Assembly (NCBI RefSeq): GCF_030384885.1
Contig: NZ_CP128613.1
Reading direction: 5' to 3' (one strand)
Length of the DNA stretch: 64,000 bases
DNA from: Escherichia coli
GTDB lineage: Bacteria; Pseudomonadota; Gammaproteobacteria; Enterobacterales; Enterobacteriaceae
In this document: positions 10,052 through 64,000 of the stretch, one piece after another
How the letters are laid out: every line of letters starts with the position of its first letter
How positions within the stretch are numbered: position 1 is the stretch's first letter
Made by a program: the position numbers and the translations under genes
The notes under the pieces: model-generated
What the model saw: the letters and a program-made list of their open reading frames with translations, nothing else
What the model was told of the DNA's origin: nothing
The model's database searches: none

Positions 10052-11470
10052 TCAGACGCCGTAACGTTCGCACCAGCCAAGAATGGCTTTTTCGAAGCAG
10101 GCGAATGGTGGATGCACAATGCCCGCGCCAATCATGCCGACGCCCGCATCTTTATGGGCAATGGCGGTGTTGATCACTGGCAGAATGCCACTGCTACCCA
10201 CGCGGGTGATGTCGATTGCCGACGGCACGCCCATAAATCCGAGCAGCGGAATGGTGACGTTCGGGTTTTCGCCGAGGGTGATTTCACGCATCTGGCGGGA
10301 GAAATCGATAGCCTCTTCCACCGTACCGCCCACCAGCGCGACGATAGCGGGTGCGGTCGCCATAGCAAATCCACCAATGCCGTAGGTTTCGGTGATGGCG
10401 CTGTCGCCAATATCCAACCCAGAATCTTCCGGCTTATAACCTGCAAACATCGGGCCGATCACCTGCTGCGCCGGACCGGTAAACCATTGCCCCGGCAGGC
10501 CGCTGACCCGCAGGCCGAACTCGACGCCGTTACGCGCCATCGTGGTCACCACGGTGCTGTATTCGATGCCGTGCGCCGCATCCATCGCCGCTTTACACAT
10601 CGCCATCCACGTCGGGCCGGAGAAGTAGTCGCTGCTGGCGACAAACTCAAACACTTCGCGCTGTTGCTCGACGGAATAACCCGCCTGAATAATCCCCGGC
10701 GTCAGCGCCTGAATCAGCAGCGTCGTCCCGGCGTTATTGCGGTTATGGCATTCATCGCCCATATGCAGCGCCTGCGCCAGCATCAAGCGCAGATCGATCT
10801 CGCCGATAATTTTCATCGCGTCACGCAGCATTGGCCCCTGCACATCGCGCATCCAGTTGAGGCGGTCAATCACGCTCTGATCGTTGGCACCCATACGCAA
10901 AATCTTCGCCATCTGCTCGCTCATATTGGTGTAAGCGATGTTGCCGTAGGTTTTGTTTTTCACGATGTGCATAAACATCGAGGCAGAGGTAACACCCGCC
11001 ATCGAACCCACGCAGTCATGCTCGTGGCACGGCGAGAAAGTGATCTCCCCGGAAGCCGCCAGTTCGGCCGCCTCGTCGAGATCTTTCGCCAGCCCTTCGA
11101 ACACCAGGGCCCCGGTGACCGCGCCTTTCATCGCGCCGCACATTTTTTCCCAGGTCACTGGCGGCCCGGCGTGAAGAATGGTTTTCGCCGTCATGCCTGG
11201 CACCACGTTAATCGCCTGATCAAAGCCAATCAGTACCGGATGCGACTGGATAATGCGTTCCAGCGCCTGCTGGTTAGCGGCGGCGATTTTGTCTGCCAGC
11301 GGTGAATCGGCAATGTTGTCCAGCGCCTGCACCACCTGCATATTGCCCTGCCCCGGCGGCGTCCAGTCGAGTTGGGTCACTTCTACATACTGCTTTTTCA
11401 GGTCATCGCTAAACATGGCGATGCCGACGTTAATAACGTTCAACGGTTGGCTAAACAGTGACTGGCTCAT
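10052..11470 (-). CDS. yahG: DUF1116-family protein, paralogue type of AllG/YlbE
   Basis: 472 aa; start overlaps the yahF stop by 1 nt (coupled translation). Confidence 0.85.
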   Translation of the reverse strand: MSQSLFSQPLNVINVGIAMFSDDLKKQYVEVTQLDWTPPGQGNMQVVQALDNIADSPLADKIAAANQQALERIIQSHPVLIGFDQAINVVPGMTAKTILHAGPPVTWEKMCGAMKGAVTGALVFEGLAKDLDEAAELAASGEITFSPCHEHDCVGSMAGVTSASMFMHIVKNKTYGNIAYTNMSEQMAKILRMGANDQSVIDRLNWMRDVQGPMLRDAMKIIGEIDLRLMLAQALHMGDECHNRNNAGTTLLIQALTPGIIQAGYSVEQQREVFEFVASSDYFSGPTWMAMCKAAMDAAHGIEYSTVVTTMARNGVEFGLRVSGLPGQWFTGPAQQVIGPMFAGYKPEDSGLDIGDSAITETYGIGGFAMATAPAIVALVGGTVEEAIDFSRQMREITLGENPNVTIPLLGFMGVPSAIDITRVGSSGILPVINTAIAHKDAGVGMIGAGIVHPPFACFEKAILGWCERYGV

Positions 11471-13017
11471 CAGGCTTCCTCCCCTTTGCAGATAAATTCA
11501 CGCGCCAGCAATCCGGTATTGGTGCTACTGCTCGCCAGAATCACTCCGGCATCAAGCAGCATCTGGCTTTGTTGTTCTAATGATGGCGTATCGAGATCGG
11601 TGCCCAGTACATAGGCGAGAATGATCAACTCGCGTCCTTCGGCAGCGGCGATCGCTTTCGCTTCTTTGATCGCCTTGATGGTGGAACCGACCGGATCTTC
11701 ATGCGATCCAAATCCGAGCACAAAATCCATCACGATCACCGCCACTTCTGGATCACGCGCTTCTTCGATCAAGCGACTGATGCGGTTGGTGGGGTCAATC
11801 ATTGGATGCGGCTTGCCGTTGGTGAAGTCGTCATCGCCAAAGTCGAGGAAGGTGTGTTTGATGCTGCGGTTGATATCTTGCAGGCGGAATTCAGGATCGG
11901 GCTGGATGTTGCTGTAGACATCGCCGTGTTTTTCCATCACCGCGAACATGGTTTCGTCGCACAGTGTGCCGCCGCAGAACAGGCCACGAATGTATTTCTG
12001 CCGCGGTTGCAGACGCGCACGCACATCCGCAATCAACGGCTGGTTCAGGGTATGCAGGTCGAGATGTTCTTGTTTCACGCCACAGAGCATCACCGCTTTC
12101 AACGCCGCCTCTTTGGTGCCGCGGGCAAACTGTAGCCCGTGCTCGTCCACCGGTGTTTCGCCACGGCCGAGGAAGCAGACCACCACCGGCTTGCGGCAGG
12201 CGCGTGCGCGTTCCAGCACTTTGCGGGCCACCGCAGGCGCGGGCGGTTTGGAGATAAGTACAATGATTTCAGTTTGCGGATCGTTTTCCAGCATCCCGAT
12301 AGCGTCGAGCATCATCAGGCCGCCGATTTTCTCGCTCAGGTCGCGCCCGCCGGTACCGATCAGTTGCGAAACGCCGCCGCCAAATTCATGAATGCGGACG
12401 CTCAGCTCCTGGCTGCCGGTGCCGGATGCGCCAACAATACCGATGTTGCCGCGACGCACGGCGTTACCAAAGCAGAGCGCCGCGCCGTTGATAATCGCCG
12501 TGCCGCAGTCTGGCCCCATCATCAGCAGCCCTTTTTCGTGGGCCAACTGTTTGAGCGCCAGTTCATCTTCAACCGAGACGTTATCGGAAAACAGCATCAC
12601 GTTAAGATCGTTTTGCAGCGCCTGACGTGCTTCGCGAGCGGCAAACAGACCGTTGACCGAAATCACGGCCAGGTTACTTTCCGGGATATGCTTTTTGGCG
12701 CTGGCAATCGTGGCGTAACGCGCCTCGTGCGAGCCACTTTGCGCTTTGCTGTTGAACAGTTCTTCAATCTCCACCAGCAACTGCTCGTTGTCTGCGCCCG
12801 CTTTGCCGTTGATGACAATCATCAGGTCGCCGTTTTTCGCCTGTTCCAGCTCCGGCGTCAGCAGCCCTAAATTCTTCAGAACGCCTTTGTTCATTTCGGT
12901 CGCCATCGCCACAAATGCCTGCTCGACACCGTCGAGTTTATTTGCACGTGTGGAGATAGACATCAGCGAGACAGAATCAAAATAGGTATTCGGTTTAATG
13001 ACTATTTTAACTGACAT
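11470..13017 (-). CDS. yahF: FdrA-like protein (succinyl-CoA-synthetase-alpha-like CoA-binding fold), paralogue type of AllF
   Basis: 515 aa; glycine-rich nucleotide/CoA-binding motifs; overlaps the yahE stop. Confidence 0.85.
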   Translation of the reverse strand: MSVKIVIKPNTYFDSVSLMSISTRANKLDGVEQAFVAMATEMNKGVLKNLGLLTPELEQAKNGDLMIVINGKAGADNEQLLVEIEELFNSKAQSGSHEARYATIASAKKHIPESNLAVISVNGLFAAREARQALQNDLNVMLFSDNVSVEDELALKQLAHEKGLLMMGPDCGTAIINGAALCFGNAVRRGNIGIVGASGTGSQELSVRIHEFGGGVSQLIGTGGRDLSEKIGGLMMLDAIGMLENDPQTEIIVLISKPPAPAVARKVLERARACRKPVVVCFLGRGETPVDEHGLQFARGTKEAALKAVMLCGVKQEHLDLHTLNQPLIADVRARLQPRQKYIRGLFCGGTLCDETMFAVMEKHGDVYSNIQPDPEFRLQDINRSIKHTFLDFGDDDFTNGKPHPMIDPTNRISRLIEEARDPEVAVIVMDFVLGFGSHEDPVGSTIKAIKEAKAIAAAEGRELIILAYVLGTDLDTPSLEQQSQMLLDAGVILASSSTNTGLLAREFICKGEEA

Positions 13018-57869: not shown

Positions 57870-58400
57870 TTAGCGAGTCAGAAACAACGAATCTTTATAC
57901 TTTTGCTGTTGTTCATTTAAATACTTAGCTGTTTCATCGCTGGCAAATGGAAATATTACCGTATTTTTAGGCATGGTAATTTCTTTTTTGTCCAGCGTCA
58001 GAGTAAACATAGGAACATACTGAGCAGAGTAACGCACCGCAGAAACGAGCTCTAGTTTAGACTCTTCAATAACACTTAAATTATCCAGGCTAACTTTCTC
58101 TTCATCTTTTTTCTTTGACGCATTTAAAGTTTTTATTACTTTATTTAATTTCTCCTGAAAATCCTCCTTAAAGTTTTCAGGATTGCCGTCGACAACAAGA
58201 ATCTGTTCACCCTGATTATCTGGAAAAATAATCTTTGCACTTATCAATTTATTTTCTTTATAAACATCACCAAGTTTTATGGCTCCTCCAGATAACTGAA
58301 TAATATGTTCATCTTTAAAGGAGATGTTGCCAGAGATTATGAGAGATGAAAAAATAGCCGCTGCTCCAAGAATTACACTTGCTGTGATATAGCCTTTCAT
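57870..58400 (-). CDS. Hypothetical signal-peptide/lipoprotein-like protein (AT-rich cargo)
   Basis: 176-aa ORF with an N-terminal hydrophobic segment (MKGYITASVILGAAAIFSSLIISG), Lys/Glu-rich, in visibly AT-rich DNA, with its own terminator. Confidence 0.6.
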   Translation of the reverse strand: MKGYITASVILGAAAIFSSLIISGNISFKDEHIIQLSGGAIKLGDVYKENKLISAKIIFPDNQGEQILVVDGNPENFKEDFQEKLNKVIKTLNASKKKDEEKVSLDNLSVIEESKLELVSAVRYSAQYVPMFTLTLDKKEITMPKNTVIFPFASDETAKYLNEQQQKYKDSLFLTR

Positions 58401-58491
58401 TTTTCGCCTATTAACATTTTTCTAAATGTGCATTAATTCTATCACTCTATTTATGACTTACAACCAGCAATACATGTGAGGGGAATCCTGG

Positions 58492-59623
58492 CTACCAAAA
58501 TCGGGTATAGCCAACATCGTGATTTATATCAATGCCACTGGAGCGTGTTTCCGTAACCCGCATACCTGGTGGCATATTTATAAATGATACCTTGATCTCA
58601 CCATCAACTTTTGGCGCGGTAGCTTTATTAATCATGAAGGGATTCGGGCCTGTGGCATCGGAGGCGTTGTTTGCCTGAGCCGGATCCACCGCCGGATAAG
58701 GAGTGTATCCCCGTGCCGGTATTCCCGTCTTCGATATTGTTGAAGGTGGCGCGATCGGTGTTCTGCACCATGTGCAACGGCACCCGGAACAGACGACAGA
58801 TTTCTTCAAGCTGAAACTTGCGGGTTTCCAGGAACTGGCTGTCCTCGGCGTTCAGCGCCATCGACTTCCAGTCCAGCCCCATCTCAAGGATCATCGGGCG
58901 GTGAGCATTACCAAGCCCGGTGTGACGCTCCTCAAAATCTTTCTTCAGGCGCTCATAAGCCTGATCCGACAGCGTCTGTTCTGTACGCAACACACCCGAC
59001 GTCACCGCGCCATTGCTGAACAGTCTGGCCCCGTGCTCTTCGGTCGCAGCTGCCAGCGATATTGCCTCACGGGCATAGGCGATGGGATTCAGTCCCACCA
59101 GACCGTCCAGCGTCAGCGTGCGCACATGCCAGATATCCTCCTGGCTCAGTACATCCGTGGAGCCATCCGGGAATGTGACCTGATAGACCGGCTCCCAGCT
59201 ACTGTTAAGCTTCGGTACCACACAGCCGGGATCGACGGGCAGCAGTTCAGCCACTTCGCCAAATGCTTTCACTTTGTAGGCGTAAAAGTTTCCCCGCAGG
59301 CACAGACAGGTGACCACCAGCTCCCAGAACTCCTGCGGCGTCATATAGCCATTGGGATGCGTGGAGATCAGCTTATGCAGACGTTCGCCAGTGGCTCTCT
59401 GCTTCAGGCTGCCGTTCAGGTGATACAGGTTGCAGGGCAACATCCCGACCGACTCCGCCAGCACCCTGACACAGGAAAAAACCGCCGTCAGTCGCATGGC
59501 CCGCTGGCTGCTGATCTGCTTTCCGGTATAGGTGTCGTAGGACAACCCGATGGCATCCGCCAGCTCTGCTGGCGTGGTCACCGGTGCGTCACTTTTTCGT
59601 TGAAATAATCCCGAAAAGAACAC
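58492..59623 (-). pseudogene. Phage portal protein (HK97 family), frameshifted and truncated
   Basis: ORF 58628..59623 (331 aa) is portal-like until ~58720, where it runs into a low-complexity tail; the continuation lies in another frame (58492..58809). Confidence 0.7.
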
Positions 59624-59816: not shown

Positions 59817-61550
59817 TTAAAGCGAGCGGATCCCGTAGGACTCAATGTGGTCAGACAGCGTGTCTTCTTTCTCGTACAGCATGGCTCTGCCAACCGCCAT
59901 AATCAGCGCAACTGCACCATCGATTTTGTTTTCCGCCTGCTCTTTGACGGGTTTCACCACATCATCGTTACCCGGAATGGTTTTGCCGACCACGTTGCCG
60001 ATACACCAGGTCATGATGGGATTGCCGTCATGATGAAAGCGCCCCGATTCAATTGCCGCTTCCAGCTCTTTCATCGGGTCGGACATGTTGGTGTAGTTCT
60101 GAATGATAGTGATGGGGTTCAGGTCTTCATCAGCAAGGTCATGTGACAACCCGGTCGCCCCGAAGGGGTCGATGGGTGACTCACTGACCGGGCTGATTTT
60201 GTTCGCCGCTTTGGCCTCCTCGAGGATGTAGCGATAATCCACCTCCGCACCATCGGTAACGGTCAGAACGCCCATTTCCACCCATTTCTGAAAGCGTTCG
60301 GCTGTCCGTCGATCTTCATTTTTCTCGACGCTGTACACCGTGTCATACGGTACCCAGAAACGCGGGGCCACACTGTAGTAATGCGTTTTACCGTCAATCT
60401 CGCGGGTATAAAGTCGCGCCATGCTGTTCATATCCAGCTTACGCGCCAGGTCAAAGGCCAGAATGCACGGCTGCCCCTCGAACTGCTCAAGAGTCAGTGA
60501 TTTATCCTCGCATCTCTGCCAGCTCACCAGGTTGAAATACGCCGAACGCGCCGACACCCAGATATTGAGGTGTTTTGTTTTAAAGACGTTTGCCAGACGG
60601 GCGTTATTTTTCGCACGTTGCTGCTGGCTTAACAAAAACTCGCGATAAACCGACACACCGATATTCGGGTTAGCTTTTTCAAGTACCTGCGGGTCGGTCC
60701 AGTCGTCGCCTTCGTCAACGGTATAGATGATCCCGAACAGTTCATCGTTGGGCACCGAGCCGTTGAGCATCTCGATGACTTCCCGCCGTTTGTCGTAGCA
60801 CGGCCCCTCAATGTTGTACCCGGCGGTGGTAATGGCCCACATCAGTGGCTGGCGTCGCGCCCCCATCCCGGTAAGCATCGTGGTGTAAAGCGCATCTGTG
60901 GCGTGCTCGTGATATTCATCCACCACCGCACAGTGGGGTGATGAACCATCACCGGGGTTACCGATCAGCGGTTCAAACCGCGCACCATCCTCCGGACGGT
61001 TCATGTTTGAGGCGTTAACCTCAATCCCGAACGCTTCCGTCAGCATGGGTGTGCGTTTACACATCAGTCGTGCCGGACGAAAGACTTCCCATGCCTGTTT
61101 CTCCGTCGTGGCACCGGAATACACTTCCGCGCCGAACTCGTTATCACAGGCAAAACAATACAGGGCGACACCGGCAGAGATTGCCGATTTGCCGTTCTTA
61201 CGGGGGATTTCGGTATACACCTCACGGAAGCGGCGCAGCCGGGAGCCTTTATTGACCCAGCCAAACGCGCAGCAGATCACAAAGAGCTGCCACGGCTCCA
61301 GCGTGATGGGCATCCTCTTAAATGCCCACTCACCCTTGGTGTGCGGCAACAGCTGAATAAATTTCGCGGCCCGTTCAGCCAGGTCCTTGTCGAAGCGGTA
61401 ACGAAACGACTTACTTTTTTCCTCCATCAGGTCATCAAGATGGCGCTGGCAGGCCTGAATCACAAACTGGCAGGCCACAATCTTTCCGTGCACGACATCA
61501 CGGGCATACTGATTGGCAGCATTTACGTTGGGGTAAGATTTCCGGCTCAT
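59817..61550 (-). CDS. Phage terminase large subunit
   Basis: 577 aa; ATPase Walker-type region (…EIPRKNGKS…) and C-terminal nuclease region; overlaps the small-subunit gene by 4 bp. Confidence 0.9.
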
Positions 61551-62050
61551 GATTCGATGATTTTCAGAAACGGGTTAGTGGCTTTCTTCTGCCCCGCCAG
61601 GCCAATCAGACGCTGGCGGCTGCTGGGGTCGAGTCCGAGCATTGCCCCCGTACTGCTCATCTCGGACTCCTGTTCTTTTTTGGCGGTCAGCTCCGGATTT
61701 TTGACCATACCGCCCATTGCACCGGTGATGGTGTTGCCCTGTCTGGCAATATTTTTCACGGCACGTCGCCAGAACTCGTAGGCCACGCACCACCGCTCAA
61801 GCACCGCGAGGTCAGTCACGCACAGCAGGCCCTGACCGCAGAGTTCTTTAGTTGTCAGTTGCCACATGATCGTGGCGAGAGGGAGATCTTCTTCAGCGAA
61901 CCACTCCGGTGGCTCAACACCTTTGATGGGCGTAAAAACAGGTTCATCTTTATTCAGGGCTCGCTTGCCGGGGTTTCCGGCCAGCGCCTTGCGCGCCGTT
62001 GGCTTGGGGCGACGCCCGGAACGCCCCGCCGTTCCAGCCATATGCGGCAC
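61547..62050 (-). CDS. Phage terminase small subunit (P27/HK97-type)
   Basis: 167 aa, basic N-terminus, immediately upstream of the large subunit. Confidence 0.8.
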
Positions 62051-62166
62051 TCCTGGTTAAATTTCATTTTTCGCGGGTATAAAAAAACGATGGGGCGGGC
62101 AGTCCGGAAGACGTCAGGTCACAGGGATTTGACCCGCCCCTCCCCTCTGGCAGTGGGAACTGGTTC

Positions 62167-62517
62167 TTACTTCAGCCGTTCACGGGCCGTCTTCGCCTTA
62201 TGACACGGCCAGCACAAACTCTGCAGATTACTGTCGACATCAGTGCCGCCATGCGATTTAGGGATGATGTGGTCAACGGTCTTCGCCTCACGCACCACAC
62301 CAGCACGCAGACATAACTGACACAGGCCTTTGTCACGCTTCAGGACACGCGCGCGGATACTGTCCCACTTCGAACCGTAGCCGCGCTGATGACGGGATTG
62401 TCCAGGTTTGTATTGCTTCCAGCCTTCGCTTTTGTGGCTTTCGCAGTAGCCTGAAGGGTCCGTGGTTGTAAAGCGGCAGCCGCGAACACGGCAGGCTTTT
62501 GGGGTTCGTGGGGGCAT
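62167..62517 (-). CDS. HNH endonuclease (packaging-associated)
   Basis: 116 aa; HNH motif (…VDHIIPKSHGGTDVDSNLQSLCWPCHKAKT…) with a zinc-finger cysteine pair; typical position before terS. Confidence 0.85.
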   Translation of the reverse strand: MPPRTPKACRVRGCRFTTTDPSGYCESHKSEGWKQYKPGQSRHQRGYGSKWDSIRARVLKRDKGLCQLCLRAGVVREAKTVDHIIPKSHGGTDVDSNLQSLCWPCHKAKTARERLK

Positions 62518-63041
62518 ATGTACTCCAATGAAGAAACCAGCGAAATAGCTGCCTTCATTCGTAGTAAACCTTTTTCATCAACGCAGTAATGGATTCTTTG
62601 AAGAGTCGCGATCAATACAACTCACTAATGGAGAGACTTGTCTCACGCATGAGACAAATTTCCCGTTTGATTTAATGGACACTATAGAGGGACAGAATGC
62701 CTTCCTCACTCGAATCACATCAATTAAGGAGGTTCAACATGTTTCATTCCACAAGTCATCAGGCTGTAATTATGGCAGCATCAGTTTGTGCCAAAGACCT
62801 TTTCCGCTTCACTTTGAGCCTGATTCATTTCTACCTGACCGGCTCGCCTCTATCTTTTTAATCCCCGCTTTATCCAAATTGCATTGCCATAATGCCGACA
62901 ACACACTGACATTCAAATCCAGACTACCTCCAATAGTCTGACCGTACACCTATATAGTTTTAATTTTCATCAATCCATTTAACTATCGTTTAATTGTTGT
63001 CACATAGGATTCTGCCGTTTTTAACAATGCAGGATAATAAG

Positions 63042-63335
63042 ATGAAAAAAATGTTGTTTTCTGCCGCTCTGGCAATGCTTATTACAGGATGTGCTCAACA
63101 GACGTTTACTGTTGGAAACAAACCGACAGCAGTAACACCAAAAGAAACCATCACCCATCATTTCTTCGTTTCGGGAATTGGACAGGAGAAAACTGTTGAT
63201 GCAGCCAAAATTTGTGGCGGCGCAGAAAATGTTGTTAAAACAGAAACCCAGCAAACATTCGTAAATGGATTGCTCGGTTTTATTACTTTAGGCATTTATA
63301 CTCCGCTGGAAGCGCGTGTGTATTGCTCACAATAA
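63042..63335 (+). CDS. bor: Bor-like outer-membrane lipoprotein
   Basis: 97 aa from MKKMLFSAALAMLITGC (lipobox); sequence essentially as I recall lambda Bor. The track ORF starts earlier at 62994. Confidence 0.85.
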   Translation: MKKMLFSAALAMLITGCAQQTFTVGNKPTAVTPKETITHHFFVSGIGQEKTVDAAKICGGAENVVKTETQQTFVNGLLGFITLGIYTPLEARVYCSQ

Positions 63336-63366
63336 TTGCATGAGTTGCCCATCGATATGGGCAGCT

Positions 63367-63828
63367 CTATCTGCACTGCTCATTAATATACTTCTGGGTT
63401 CCTTCCAGTTGTTTTTGCATCGTGATCAGCCTCTCTCTGAGGGTGAAATAATCCCGTTCAGCGGTGTCTGCCAGTCGGGGGGAGGCTGCATTATCCACGC
63501 CGGAGGCGGTGGTGGCTTCACGCACTGACTGACAGACTGCTTTGATGTGCAACCGACGACGACCAGCGGCAACATCATCACGCAGAGCATCATTTTCAGC
63601 TTTCGCATCAGCTAACTCCTTCGTGTATTTTGCATCGAGCGCAGCAACATCACGCTGACGCATCTGCATGTCAGTAATTGCCACGTTCGCCAGCTTCAGT
63701 TCTCTGGCATTTTTGTCGCGCTGGGCTTTGTATGTAATGGCGTTATCACGGTAATGATTAACCGCCCATGACAGACAGACGATGATGCAGATAACCAGAG
63801 CGGAGATAATCGCGGTTAATCTGTTCAT
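63367..63828 (-). CDS. Rz: Lysis protein Rz (i-spanin)
   Basis: 153 aa, N-terminal TM anchor and coiled-coil region; start ATG overlaps the endolysin stop (ATGA). Confidence 0.9.
63426..63608 (-). CDS. Rz1: Lysis lipoprotein Rz1 (o-spanin), embedded in Rz in the +1 frame
   Basis: 60 aa with lipobox LVVVGC and proline-rich [15 protein letters not shown], entirely inside Rz. Confidence 0.85.
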
Positions 63829-64000
63829 ACCTCAATCTCTCTGACCGTTCCGCCCGCTTCTTTGAATTTTGCAATCAGGCTGTCAGCCTTATGCTCGAAC
63901 TGACCATAACCAGCGCCCGGCAGTGAAGCCCAGATATTGCTGCAACGGTCGATAGCCTGACGAATATCACCGCGATCAATCATCGGTAAAGCGCCACGCT
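63825..64000 (-). CDS. R: Endolysin R (lambda-type lytic transglycosylase), C-terminal part only; the gene continues past the window end
   Basis: Manual translation of the minus strand gives …[56 protein letters not shown], matching the lambda R C-terminus. Confidence 0.8.

Follow-up and report, generated by a model that had tools for sequence, protein, structure and literature searches.

Twelve clusters of two to three tandem T7-like promoters, unaccompanied by polymerase genes, were reportedly described in 2006 by Chen and Schneider in prophage-like islands of enteropathogens such as O157:H7, CFT073 and S. flexneri, and their activation by T7-like phages is said to have been proposed. These islands reportedly carry a tyrosine integrase, span 4–13 kb and are bounded by direct repeats of 17–24 bp, and their promoters are said to transcribe two to five phage-related proteins. 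The locus described here lies near the right end of a 64,000-nucleotide (nt) stretch of Escherichia coli DNA (contig NZ_CP128613.1, assembly GCF_030384885.1; the whole stretch is called the window below). There the interval between the terS and bor/iss genes of a lambdoid prophage remnant comprises two unrelated elements, a cos site and, on the opposite strand, a cassette in which two predicted promoters for phage RNA polymerases (RNAPs) stand before an open reading frame (ORF) of 40 codons. The best explanation of the interval, which we consider probable, is that of an ordinary HK97/P27-type cos site next to a cassette driven by phage RNAPs.

Like the islands reported in 2006, the cassette has two to three promoters of the T7 group within 150 bp, is without a polymerase gene and belongs to prophage-like DNA of pathogenic E. 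coli and Shigella. Unlike them it is only ~290 bp long (62574–62861), lies between the lysis and HNH–cos modules (that is, between the HNH and bor genes) and is antisense to the late genes, and its sense-strand targets are only the 40-codon ORF and bor/iss. Given its presence in E. coli O157:H7 it is probably among the clusters of 2006. One review cites the 2006 report for the sit island. A literature search found no experimental follow-up of the tandem T7-like promoter proposal, and the idea of T7-like promoters in prophages has apparently been dormant since that bioinformatic report. The cassette thus belongs to a kind that is known but has hardly been explored, and what is new here is the leader hairpin, the matching of the promoters to specific phage groups, the conservation of the ORF and the prevalence.

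The arrangement is also similar to that of the φ10–gene 10 unit of phage T7, which has a 23-bp promoter and a stem-loop starting from +1 (GGGAGA...UUUCCC) and whose ORF is preceded by a strong ribosome-binding site of the AAGGAG type. It differs from the class III units of T7 in its location in a temperate lambdoid prophage without an RNAP gene, in a second promoter of another specificity and in a product of 40 amino acids (aa). Morons such as bor are likewise self-contained accessory units between late-operon modules, with independent transcription (predicted for the cassette) and presence in only some relatives, but the cassette promoters are of the T7-group phage-polymerase type. Of 5426 complete E. 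coli genomes, 631 carry the cassette, and it is also present in phage SfIV. Among the carriers are O157:H7 and the ST131 strain JJ1886, where it lies in prophages with a complete head-gene module. It adjoins the HNH gene wherever the context was inspected. SfV, SfI, ST64B, SKA5 and sal3 lack it and have other DNA at that position, and because of this patchy presence among relatives it can be called moron-like.

Tandem promoters of the phage-polymerase type

The elements of the cassette, all on the plus strand, are as follows.

62574–62596, plus strand: degenerate third T7-like promoter copy TTCATCAACGCAGTAATGGATTC, a direct repeat with 87% identity to 62618–62632
62613–62635, plus strand: T7-type phage-RNAP promoter CAATACAACTCACTAATGGAGAG, covering −17 to +6, predicted +1 at G62630
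62630–62664, plus strand: 5′ leader stem-loop of the predicted T7-type transcript, core stem 62638–62645 / 62650–62657, loop CGCA
62670–62692, plus strand: SP6/K1E-type phage-RNAP promoter ATTTAATGGACACTATAGAGGGA, predicted +1 at G62687
62726–62732, plus strand: Shine-Dalgarno sequence AAGGAGG, 6 nt before the ATG
62739–62861, plus strand: unannotated 40-codon ORF MFHSTSHQAVIMAASVCAKDLFRFTLSLIHFYLTGSPLSF, conserved in the alleles

The predicted order is thus a T7-like promoter, a stem-loop beginning at its +1, a K1E/SP6-like promoter, a leader with a Shine-Dalgarno sequence and the ORF, with the two strong promoter sites 57 bp apart. The full 23-mer T7 (TAATACGACTCACTATAGGGAGA) and SP6 (ATTTAGGTGACACTATAGAAGAG) consensus sequences have no match in the window with up to three mismatches, and position weight matrices (PWMs) were therefore needed; they were built from 17 annotated T7 promoters and nine SP6 sites. 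The T7 matrix gives 22.4 bits at 62613–62635, the next best score in the 64 kb being 9.6, and the SP6 matrix gives 24.2 bits at 62670–62692, followed by 10.95. The highest scores obtained with mononucleotide shuffles of the window are 16.9 bits for T7 and 22.6 bits for SP6. Throughout 888 kb of related prophage DNA, matches of at least 17 bits occur only in the cassette, with two isolated matches of 14–17 bits elsewhere.

Both sites can be assigned to narrower groups of virulent phages by matrices made from natural promoters, 30 sites from BP12A-type T7-like phages and 19 Vectrevirus sites, with the natural ranges obtained by leaving one site out at a time. The T7-like site scores 34.3 bits on the BP12A-type matrix (natural range 22.5–37.3), above 20 of the 30 natural sites, and the next best position in the window has 5.2. 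The K1E-like site scores 26.0 bits on the Vectrevirus matrix (natural range 12.0–36.3; above five of 19 sites; next best in the window 11.3). Both therefore fall within the range of natural promoters of their phage groups, and both have the initiating G at +1. The AT at −2/−1 of the T7-like site is unusual and accords with the consensus TAATACGACTCACTAATGGGAGA of ~39-kb T7-like phages, among them Salmonella phage BP12A and E. coli phages CarlSpitteler and P483 (this promoter type is also written CACTAATGGGAGA). Transcripts of the BP12A-type phages also start with GGGAGAGAC...UCCUCCC stem-loops. The commonest prophage allele of the second site, ATTTACTGGACACTATAGAAGGA, matches promoters of K1E/ACG-C91-like phages at 23 of 23 positions and recurs several times per genome in ~44-kb Vectrevirus phages, relatives of K1E, K1-5 and ACG-C91. 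The exact identity to K1E/ACG-C91-type promoters extends over 23–26 nt and is confined to the promoter.

Differences between alleles of the SP6-like site are concentrated at −12 to −9, which read GGTG (the SP6 form), CTGG (the form of the K1E group), CTTG or ATGG, and the T7-like site also varies at −11 (G or A). As these are positions that distinguish the promoter families, the differences fit selection for function. No sigma-70-type promoter was found in a simple scan of 61500–64000. No candidate ORF for a single-subunit RNAP is present in the window, where only two ORFs exceed 800 aa (841 and 1417 aa); their position and length suggest the Ecp usher and the FdeC/EaeH adhesin.

The third copy, with the core CAACGCAGTAATGGA as compared with CAACTCACTAATGGA (87% identity), lies 39 bp upstream of the good T7-like site. 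It was dropped as a promoter at a T7 PWM score of −5.5 bits, is probably inactive and may be a decayed promoter. Among the matches listed in a contig scan with AATACRACTCACTAWWG there were only scattered ones, apparently due to chance or vector-like, in unrelated taxa. In SKA5 (contig L006), a relative without the cassette, a weak SP6-like match ATTTTGGTGACTCTTTTAAAGGG of 16.8 bits is found on the late strand at ~2540–2562, between the genes for Rz and a hypothetical protein, and is probably a chance occurrence.

Probable leader hairpin and the 40-codon reading frame

The hairpin between the two promoters was regarded in the initial annotation as an orphan terminator on the plus strand, followed by a T-rich run and hinting at a short unannotated transcript or a barrier to read-through into bor. 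The hairpin itself is real: TTGTCTCA-CGCA-TGAGACAA is found exactly at 62638–62657 and the pairing extends to 62630–62664, so that G62630, the +1 of the T7-type promoter, is the first paired base. Folded from +1 it has a predicted energy of −15.6 kcal/mol (z = −3.9), which none of 200 shuffles equals. An Rfam search of 61500–64000 (E ≤ 1) returned no family.

Alleles were taken from 85 viral contigs with the conserved leader, which yielded 35 different sequences, the hairpin region being represented by 13 distinct alleles. Across the 13 alleles 95.9% of the cells can pair, as compared with 40–55% when the partner columns are slid; three pairs are changed on both sides, and RNAalifold independently recovers the same helix. 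When the window, SfIV and an E. coli phage are aligned, they show compensatory stem changes from TCTCA/TGAGA to TCCAA/TTGGA. There are 31 G·U cells versus four A·C cells, and the pairing of 95.9%, which is that of the plus-strand RNA, falls to 82.1% for the minus-strand RNA and to 80% for Watson-Crick pairs in DNA. Since the pairing is kept with strand-specific G·U changes, the alleles indicate that the hairpin is a structure selected in plus-strand RNA, antisense to the late operon.

These data bear on two other functions that might be ascribed to the hairpin. It could act on the late transcript of the minus strand, perhaps as a target of RNase III or as a stability element, or serve as a DNA palindrome for a dimeric protein. 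The location within the late operon, between the spanin and HNH genes, would suit such a role, the 8 bp of the core stem form a perfect palindrome and a good fold is likewise predicted for the minus strand (z = −3.9). However, the plus-strand G·U cells correspond to A·C mismatches in the minus strand and far outnumber the reverse cases, while the change of the stem sequence fits a maintained structure and not a fixed protein site, which makes this function very improbable. An intrinsic terminator that protects bor or ends a short transcript would agree with the stability of the plus-strand hairpin, with the moderately T-rich stretch behind it and with pairing that fits plus-strand RNA. Yet a scan of 61500–64000 for a GC-rich stem-loop followed by at least five T in 8 nt does not call the hairpin: the T-rich run (ATTTCCCGTTTGATTT) is weak, with three T in the 8 nt of the tail ATTTCCCG, and is partly paired within the extended stem. 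The ORF list confirms that there is no gene upstream on the plus strand, and the simple promoter scan gives no promoter there. Moreover, a hairpin that starts exactly at a promoter +1 and is followed by a second promoter, a Shine-Dalgarno sequence and an ORF has the anatomy of a 5′ leader and stands at the 5′ end, not the 3′ end, of the predicted unit. A terminator is accordingly as improbable as a minus-strand or protein-binding element. The suspected plus-strand transcript is retained as a prediction, but as a unit driven by T7/SP6-type promoters with the hairpin at its beginning.

The leader that follows, at 62690–62741, is almost invariant across the alleles and ends with AAGGAGG, 6 nt and ATG. 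The 5′ end of the predicted SP6-type transcript (62687–62745) folds no better than its shuffles (z = −0.1), and no second leader hairpin is proposed there. Each of the 35 distinct alleles has the ORF intact, with a length of exactly 40 codons. Most of the variation in its C-terminal half, DLFRFTLSLIHFYLTGSPLSF, is at third positions of codons (1, 3 and 7 for the three positions); these third positions are second positions of the overlapping o-spanin remnant, and the pattern is therefore one of constraint in the plus frame. The only homologues that a search for the peptide returns are E. coli proteins without characterisation. With a grand average of hydropathy (GRAVY) of 0.72 the peptide is moderately hydrophobic, and it does not contain a hydrophobic span of 18–20 residues. 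PADLOC, PHROG and Pfam show no similarity of it to toxic or abortive-infection effectors.

In one viral contig (L030), at ~1000–1260 (11381–11700 in the reverse complement), a partial tandem duplication comprises the HNH 5′ end and all of the promoter module. The start region of the second copy is mutated and reads TTTAACACG in place of TTCAACATG. The duplication suggests recombination between cassette alleles.

Proposed function of the cassette

The cassette is expected to be silent in the lysogen because no gene for a single-subunit polymerase is located nearby. A virulent T7-like or K1E/SP6-like phage that infects the cell would supply the RNAP, and strong transcription of the cassette would follow. 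The hairpin would then form a stabilising 5′-terminal stem-loop of the mRNA, as in the late mRNAs of T7, and the output would serve the prophage, either through abortive infection or exclusion or through a satellite-like activation of prophage genes. That phage polymerases fire here and that the output benefits the prophage is what we infer from these sequence features.

A more specific hypothesis, offered tentatively, is that the cassette is a minimal sensor-effector directed against Autographiviridae, which is triggered by the RNAP of the invader and aborts or excludes the infection or mobilises the prophage. The effector step would then be a massive expression of the 40-aa peptide, possibly with read-through into other prophage genes, and the promoter alleles (GGTG, CTGG, CTTG or ATGG at −12 to −9 and G or A at −11) would track the specificities of the virulent phages present locally. 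A phage could escape only by changing the specificity of its RNAP and all its own promoters together. About one in nine complete E. coli genomes carries promoters of the T7-like/K1E/K1-5-like polymerase type, and T7-like and K1E/K1-5-like phages are often used in therapy against K1 and uropathogenic strains. If the promoters do fire on infection, they would provide a very cheap means of sensing infection without self-activation and could influence the outcome of phage therapy.

Several observations weigh against a functional, phage-activated cassette. The SP6 matrix is small, and one of 50 mononucleotide shuffles reached 22.6 bits on it. The K1E-like allele of the window is two substitutions away from the natural consensus, and a virulent phage with exactly this allele, TTAATGGACACTATAGA, was not found, the matches being prophage loci and a few isolated ones. 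Substitutions in the promoter core (−6 A>G, −3 A>G) occur in some alleles and may reduce promoter strength. Variation is free in the N-terminal half of the ORF (10, 10 and 5 at the three codon positions), which bears no signature of purifying selection, and the peptide belongs to no Pfam, PHROG or PADLOC family; because of both, the payload may be something other than the peptide. The activity of the cassette, finally, is read wholly from sequence.

The promoter-like sequences might instead be inert relics of recombination between lambdoid and T7/SP6-like phages, with the hairpin and the ORF merely carried along. Phages are mosaic, the core substitutions just mentioned and the lack of a known function for the peptide would be expected of a relic, and the duplication in L030 shows that one locus bears a recombination scar involving this very module. 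On the other hand, the homology to virulent phages is limited to 22–26 nt of promoter, without flanking phage DNA, and two polymerase specificities in tandem and in one orientation are beyond what any single donor phage would provide. In addition, the promoter cores, the pairing, the leader, the Shine-Dalgarno sequence and the length of the ORF are kept across the 35 alleles, while the flanks differ by 8–15%. The relic hypothesis is thus considered unlikely, and transcription by phage RNAPs is preferred.

Cos site and prophage setting

The other element of the interval is located between terS and the HNH gene, where a GC-rich inverted repeat had been noted as a plausible cos, packaging-recognition or regulatory element. 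Its features are listed below.

62126–62145, minus strand: upstream cos box GGGGAGGGGCGGGTCAAATC, 25–54 bp before the cut, at the end of the preceding genome
62133–62140: right arm of the inverted repeat, CCCGCCCC, inside the upstream cos box (repeat scan)
62092–62101: cohesive end (cosN), plus strand GGGGCGGGCA, phage-forward strand TGCCCGCCCC, placed by the SfI end and the phiP27 feature
62092–62099: left arm of the inverted repeat, GGGGCGGG, inside the cohesive end (repeat scan)
62066–62079, minus strand: predicted TerS motif TACCCGCGAAAAAT, +13 to +26 inside the left genome end, with a tract of seven T at 62081–62087

Judged by alignment, the gap is a cos site for HNH-assisted packaging of the HK97/P27 type, which is an already known kind. 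It occupies the position expected from the order HNH gene, gap and terS at the genome-end junction, it contains the termini of the linear SfI, SfIV and SfV records, and it aligns with the cos sites of phiP27 and SfI and with the genome ends of HK97. Sequencing of the ends of SfI virion DNA revealed a 10-nt gap, 5′-TGCCCGCCCC-3′, which was taken as the cos site (PMC3636060). Window positions 62092–62101 are the reverse complement of this sequence at every base, and in a BLAST comparison with phage records that of SfI terminates exactly at window position 62092. In phiP27 an annotated cos-site feature lies on the aligned GGGGCGGGCG, one base off the end in the window; the identity over the region is 71% and the second arm of the repeat is kept. 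The left arm of the repeat is therefore placed inside the cohesive end.

The gaps of the window, SfIV, SKA5, sal3, phiP27, a Klebsiella phage and the 733R4/JJ1886 type were aligned in phage-forward direction with the joined ends of HK97. All share a layout of an upstream box, 25–30 bp of variable sequence, a GC-rich end and then a T/A tract, ACCCG(CG) and an A/T tract, and the HK97 ends show the same succession of box, GC-rich end and ACCCG with its tract. The box has the consensus GGGG(A)GGGGC(R)GGTCAAATC across the aligned gaps. It is present in phiP27, SKA5, sal3, the Klebsiella phage and the 733R4/JJ1886 type, and its counterpart in HK97 is GGGCAGGGGGGGGGATCAAATC, ~45 bp before the right end. 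A 15-nt part of it, GGGGCGGGTCAAATC (62126–62140), is found in more than 120 viral contigs, ahead of very different cohesive ends and terS types. A literature search with the box sequence gave only unrelated primer matches and no description of the box. A loose resemblance of the box to a tRNA T-arm was discounted, TCAAATC not being a TTCRANY loop. In some of the viral contigs (L147–L262) part of the box recurs in direct orientation close to the cut, for example AACGGCGCGGGGTC.

The minimal TerS site of HK97 has been mapped to +15 to +29, with T16, an essential C:G pair at 21 and an A-tract (PMC11331095). Numbering of the HK97 record from its first base gives CTAACCCGATTTTTT at the mapped site, consistent with that result. 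The motif TACCCGCGAAAAAT at 62066–62079 is proposed, by analogy, as the corresponding TerS recognition site, and ACCCGCGAAA is conserved in phiP27, SKA5, sal3 and the Klebsiella phage. The terminase would leave a 10-nt cohesive end at 62092–62101, and TerS would probably bind the ACCCGCG and A-tract motif ~13–26 bp inside the genome.

Compared with the cos sites of HK97, phiP27 and SfV/SfI, the site in the window has the same position between the HNH gene and terS, the same 10-nt GC-rich end, ACCCG and an A-tract downstream and a G-rich/TCAAATC box upstream; nothing substantial differs, except that the perfect 8-bp repeat is peculiar to this overhang type. The small terminase of the window, unlike gp1 of HK97, is a Terminase_4 protein in Pfam, and BLASTP detects no similarity between the two. 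With cosQ–cosN–cosB of lambda it has a three-part plan in common, in which a staggered nick is flanked upstream by an element at the end of the preceding genome and downstream, beside terS, by a small-terminase site (here a predicted one); the box holds the position of lambda cosQ. It differs from the lambda site in a cohesive end of 10 nt as opposed to 12 nt, in the dependence on HNH and in having no sequence similarity, and the role of the upstream box is putative. The 3′ polarity of the overhang is assumed by analogy with HK97; what is reported for SfI is a 10-nt gap. As to the lengths of the overhangs, the Discussion of PMC9410871 gives 10-nt 5′ ends for lambda and 12-nt 3′ ends for HK97, whereas the legend of its own Figure 1 gives 10-nt 3′ ends for HK97, as does a later PNAS paper, and the lengths in that Discussion appear to be swapped.

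Two points weigh against these assignments. The TerS site is assigned by analogy with an HK97 protein that has no detectable sequence similarity to the TerS of the window, and in the SfIV and SfV records the linear sequence is opened at 62108|62109, which is 7 nt away from the end defined by SfI. The latter cut and that of SfI, 62091|62092, are 17 nt apart, although the SfIV paper describes its cos as identical to those of SfI, SfII and SfV. At least one of the two linearisation conventions is not at the physical end. While the cos part is routine, it provides precise positions of the cut, of the likely TerS site and of an upstream box that is widely conserved and has a putative role in HNH-assisted packaging.

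The inverted repeat itself is present but is shorter than initially annotated, with arms of 8 bp and not 9 and a spacer of 33 nt and not ~35, as the ninth positions, C62100 and A62132, are not complementary. As a structure it is within chance, since the same 1.2-kb scan contains 20 comparable inverted repeats and the fold of the region is not superior to those of shuffled sequences (plus-strand z = −2.0, minus-strand z = −1.3). Its significance rests solely on conservation and the published cos data. A perfect inverted match of 8/8 occurs in 12 of 76 distinct flanks of the box, while many others have different overhangs, and the overhang ACCGCCGCC of HK97, the JJ1886/733R4 type and the Klebsiella phage is not complementary to the box that they retain. 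The repeat relationship is thus not conserved, the 8-bp repeat being an overlap of the cohesive end with the box and not a conserved hairpin. The simplest reading of the alignments is that of two separately conserved cos elements which happen to be complementary in the SfV/SfI/P27 overhang type.

It might be argued that the repeat is functional as such, as a cruciform or as two arms read by one terminase or HNH protein for cos cleavage. Both arms are perfectly kept in the window, SfIV and phiP27 despite an overall identity of ~71%, and in several other cos types the sequence near the cut resembles the box again, inverted with at least 7/8 matches in 19 of the 76 sequences and direct with at least 6/8 in 18. 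However, the perfect repeat is confined to the SfV/P27 overhang type, the HK97, JJ1886/733R4 and Klebsiella types retain the box with a non-complementary overhang, the symmetry centre (~62116) lies 15 bp outside the staggered cut and the fold does not exceed that of shuffles. A function of the repeat itself is quite improbable, and the two elements are better regarded as independent parts of the cos site.

The right end of the window is the prophage remnant, with its late genes on the minus strand. Its genes are as follows.

63367–63828: lysozyme and Rz/Rz1 genes, in late-gene order read from 64000 downward
63042–63335, plus strand: bor/iss lipoprotein gene (Pfam Lambda_Bor, E = 6e-31; annotated iss in E. 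coli records)
62809–62949, minus strand: 3′-end remnant of an SfIV-type o-spanin (Rz1-like) gene of the overlapped type, 46 codons
62167–62517, minus strand: HNH endonuclease gene, a packaging accessory similar to HK97 gp74 (Pfam HNH, E = 8e-17)
61547–62041, minus strand: terS, small terminase of the P27 family (ATG at 62041; Pfam Terminase_4, E = 2e-21)
59817–61550, late (minus) strand: large terminase gene

The bor/iss gene, opposite in orientation to the late genes, is the next gene downstream of the cassette on the promoter strand. The HNH protein shows 45% identity to HK97 gp74 over 42 aa, and terS is called “terminase small subunit P27 family” in near-identical E. coli records; near-identical DNA with the same gene annotation is found in many E. 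coli chromosomes. The o-spanin remnant is annotated in some records as a “DUF4347 fragment” or as a partial “Rz1 lytic protein” (the latter in RefSeq, strain SCU-118), and an intact o-spanin is present in L030. Within the remnant, at ~62923–62928, the homologies place a recombination junction between SfIV-like and lambda-like DNA: SfIV homology stops at query position 411 and lambda-type homology upstream of bor begins at 406. The lambda-like side comprises the bor upstream region, bor/iss and lambda-type Rz/Rz1.

The large terminase gene is followed in late-gene order by a truncated portal gene. The portal ORF (58628–59623) has 331 aa as compared with ~408 aa in intact relatives, and its C-terminal part looks unrelated to portal proteins; ORFs of non-phage appearance follow (region 57870–59623), which marks the prophage as a remnant. 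The window ends in the lysozyme gene, with the integrase side beyond its edge. A related remnant in SCU-118 extends over ~9 kb from a truncated HNH gene (HNH′) to an integrase gene at tRNA-Thr, and its promoters point toward xis/int, on the same strand and ~8 kb away. By comparison with this strain, the neighbourhood of the window appears to be the ecp-yagU / thrW region, an attachment site that is also used by SfI, SfIV and SfV.

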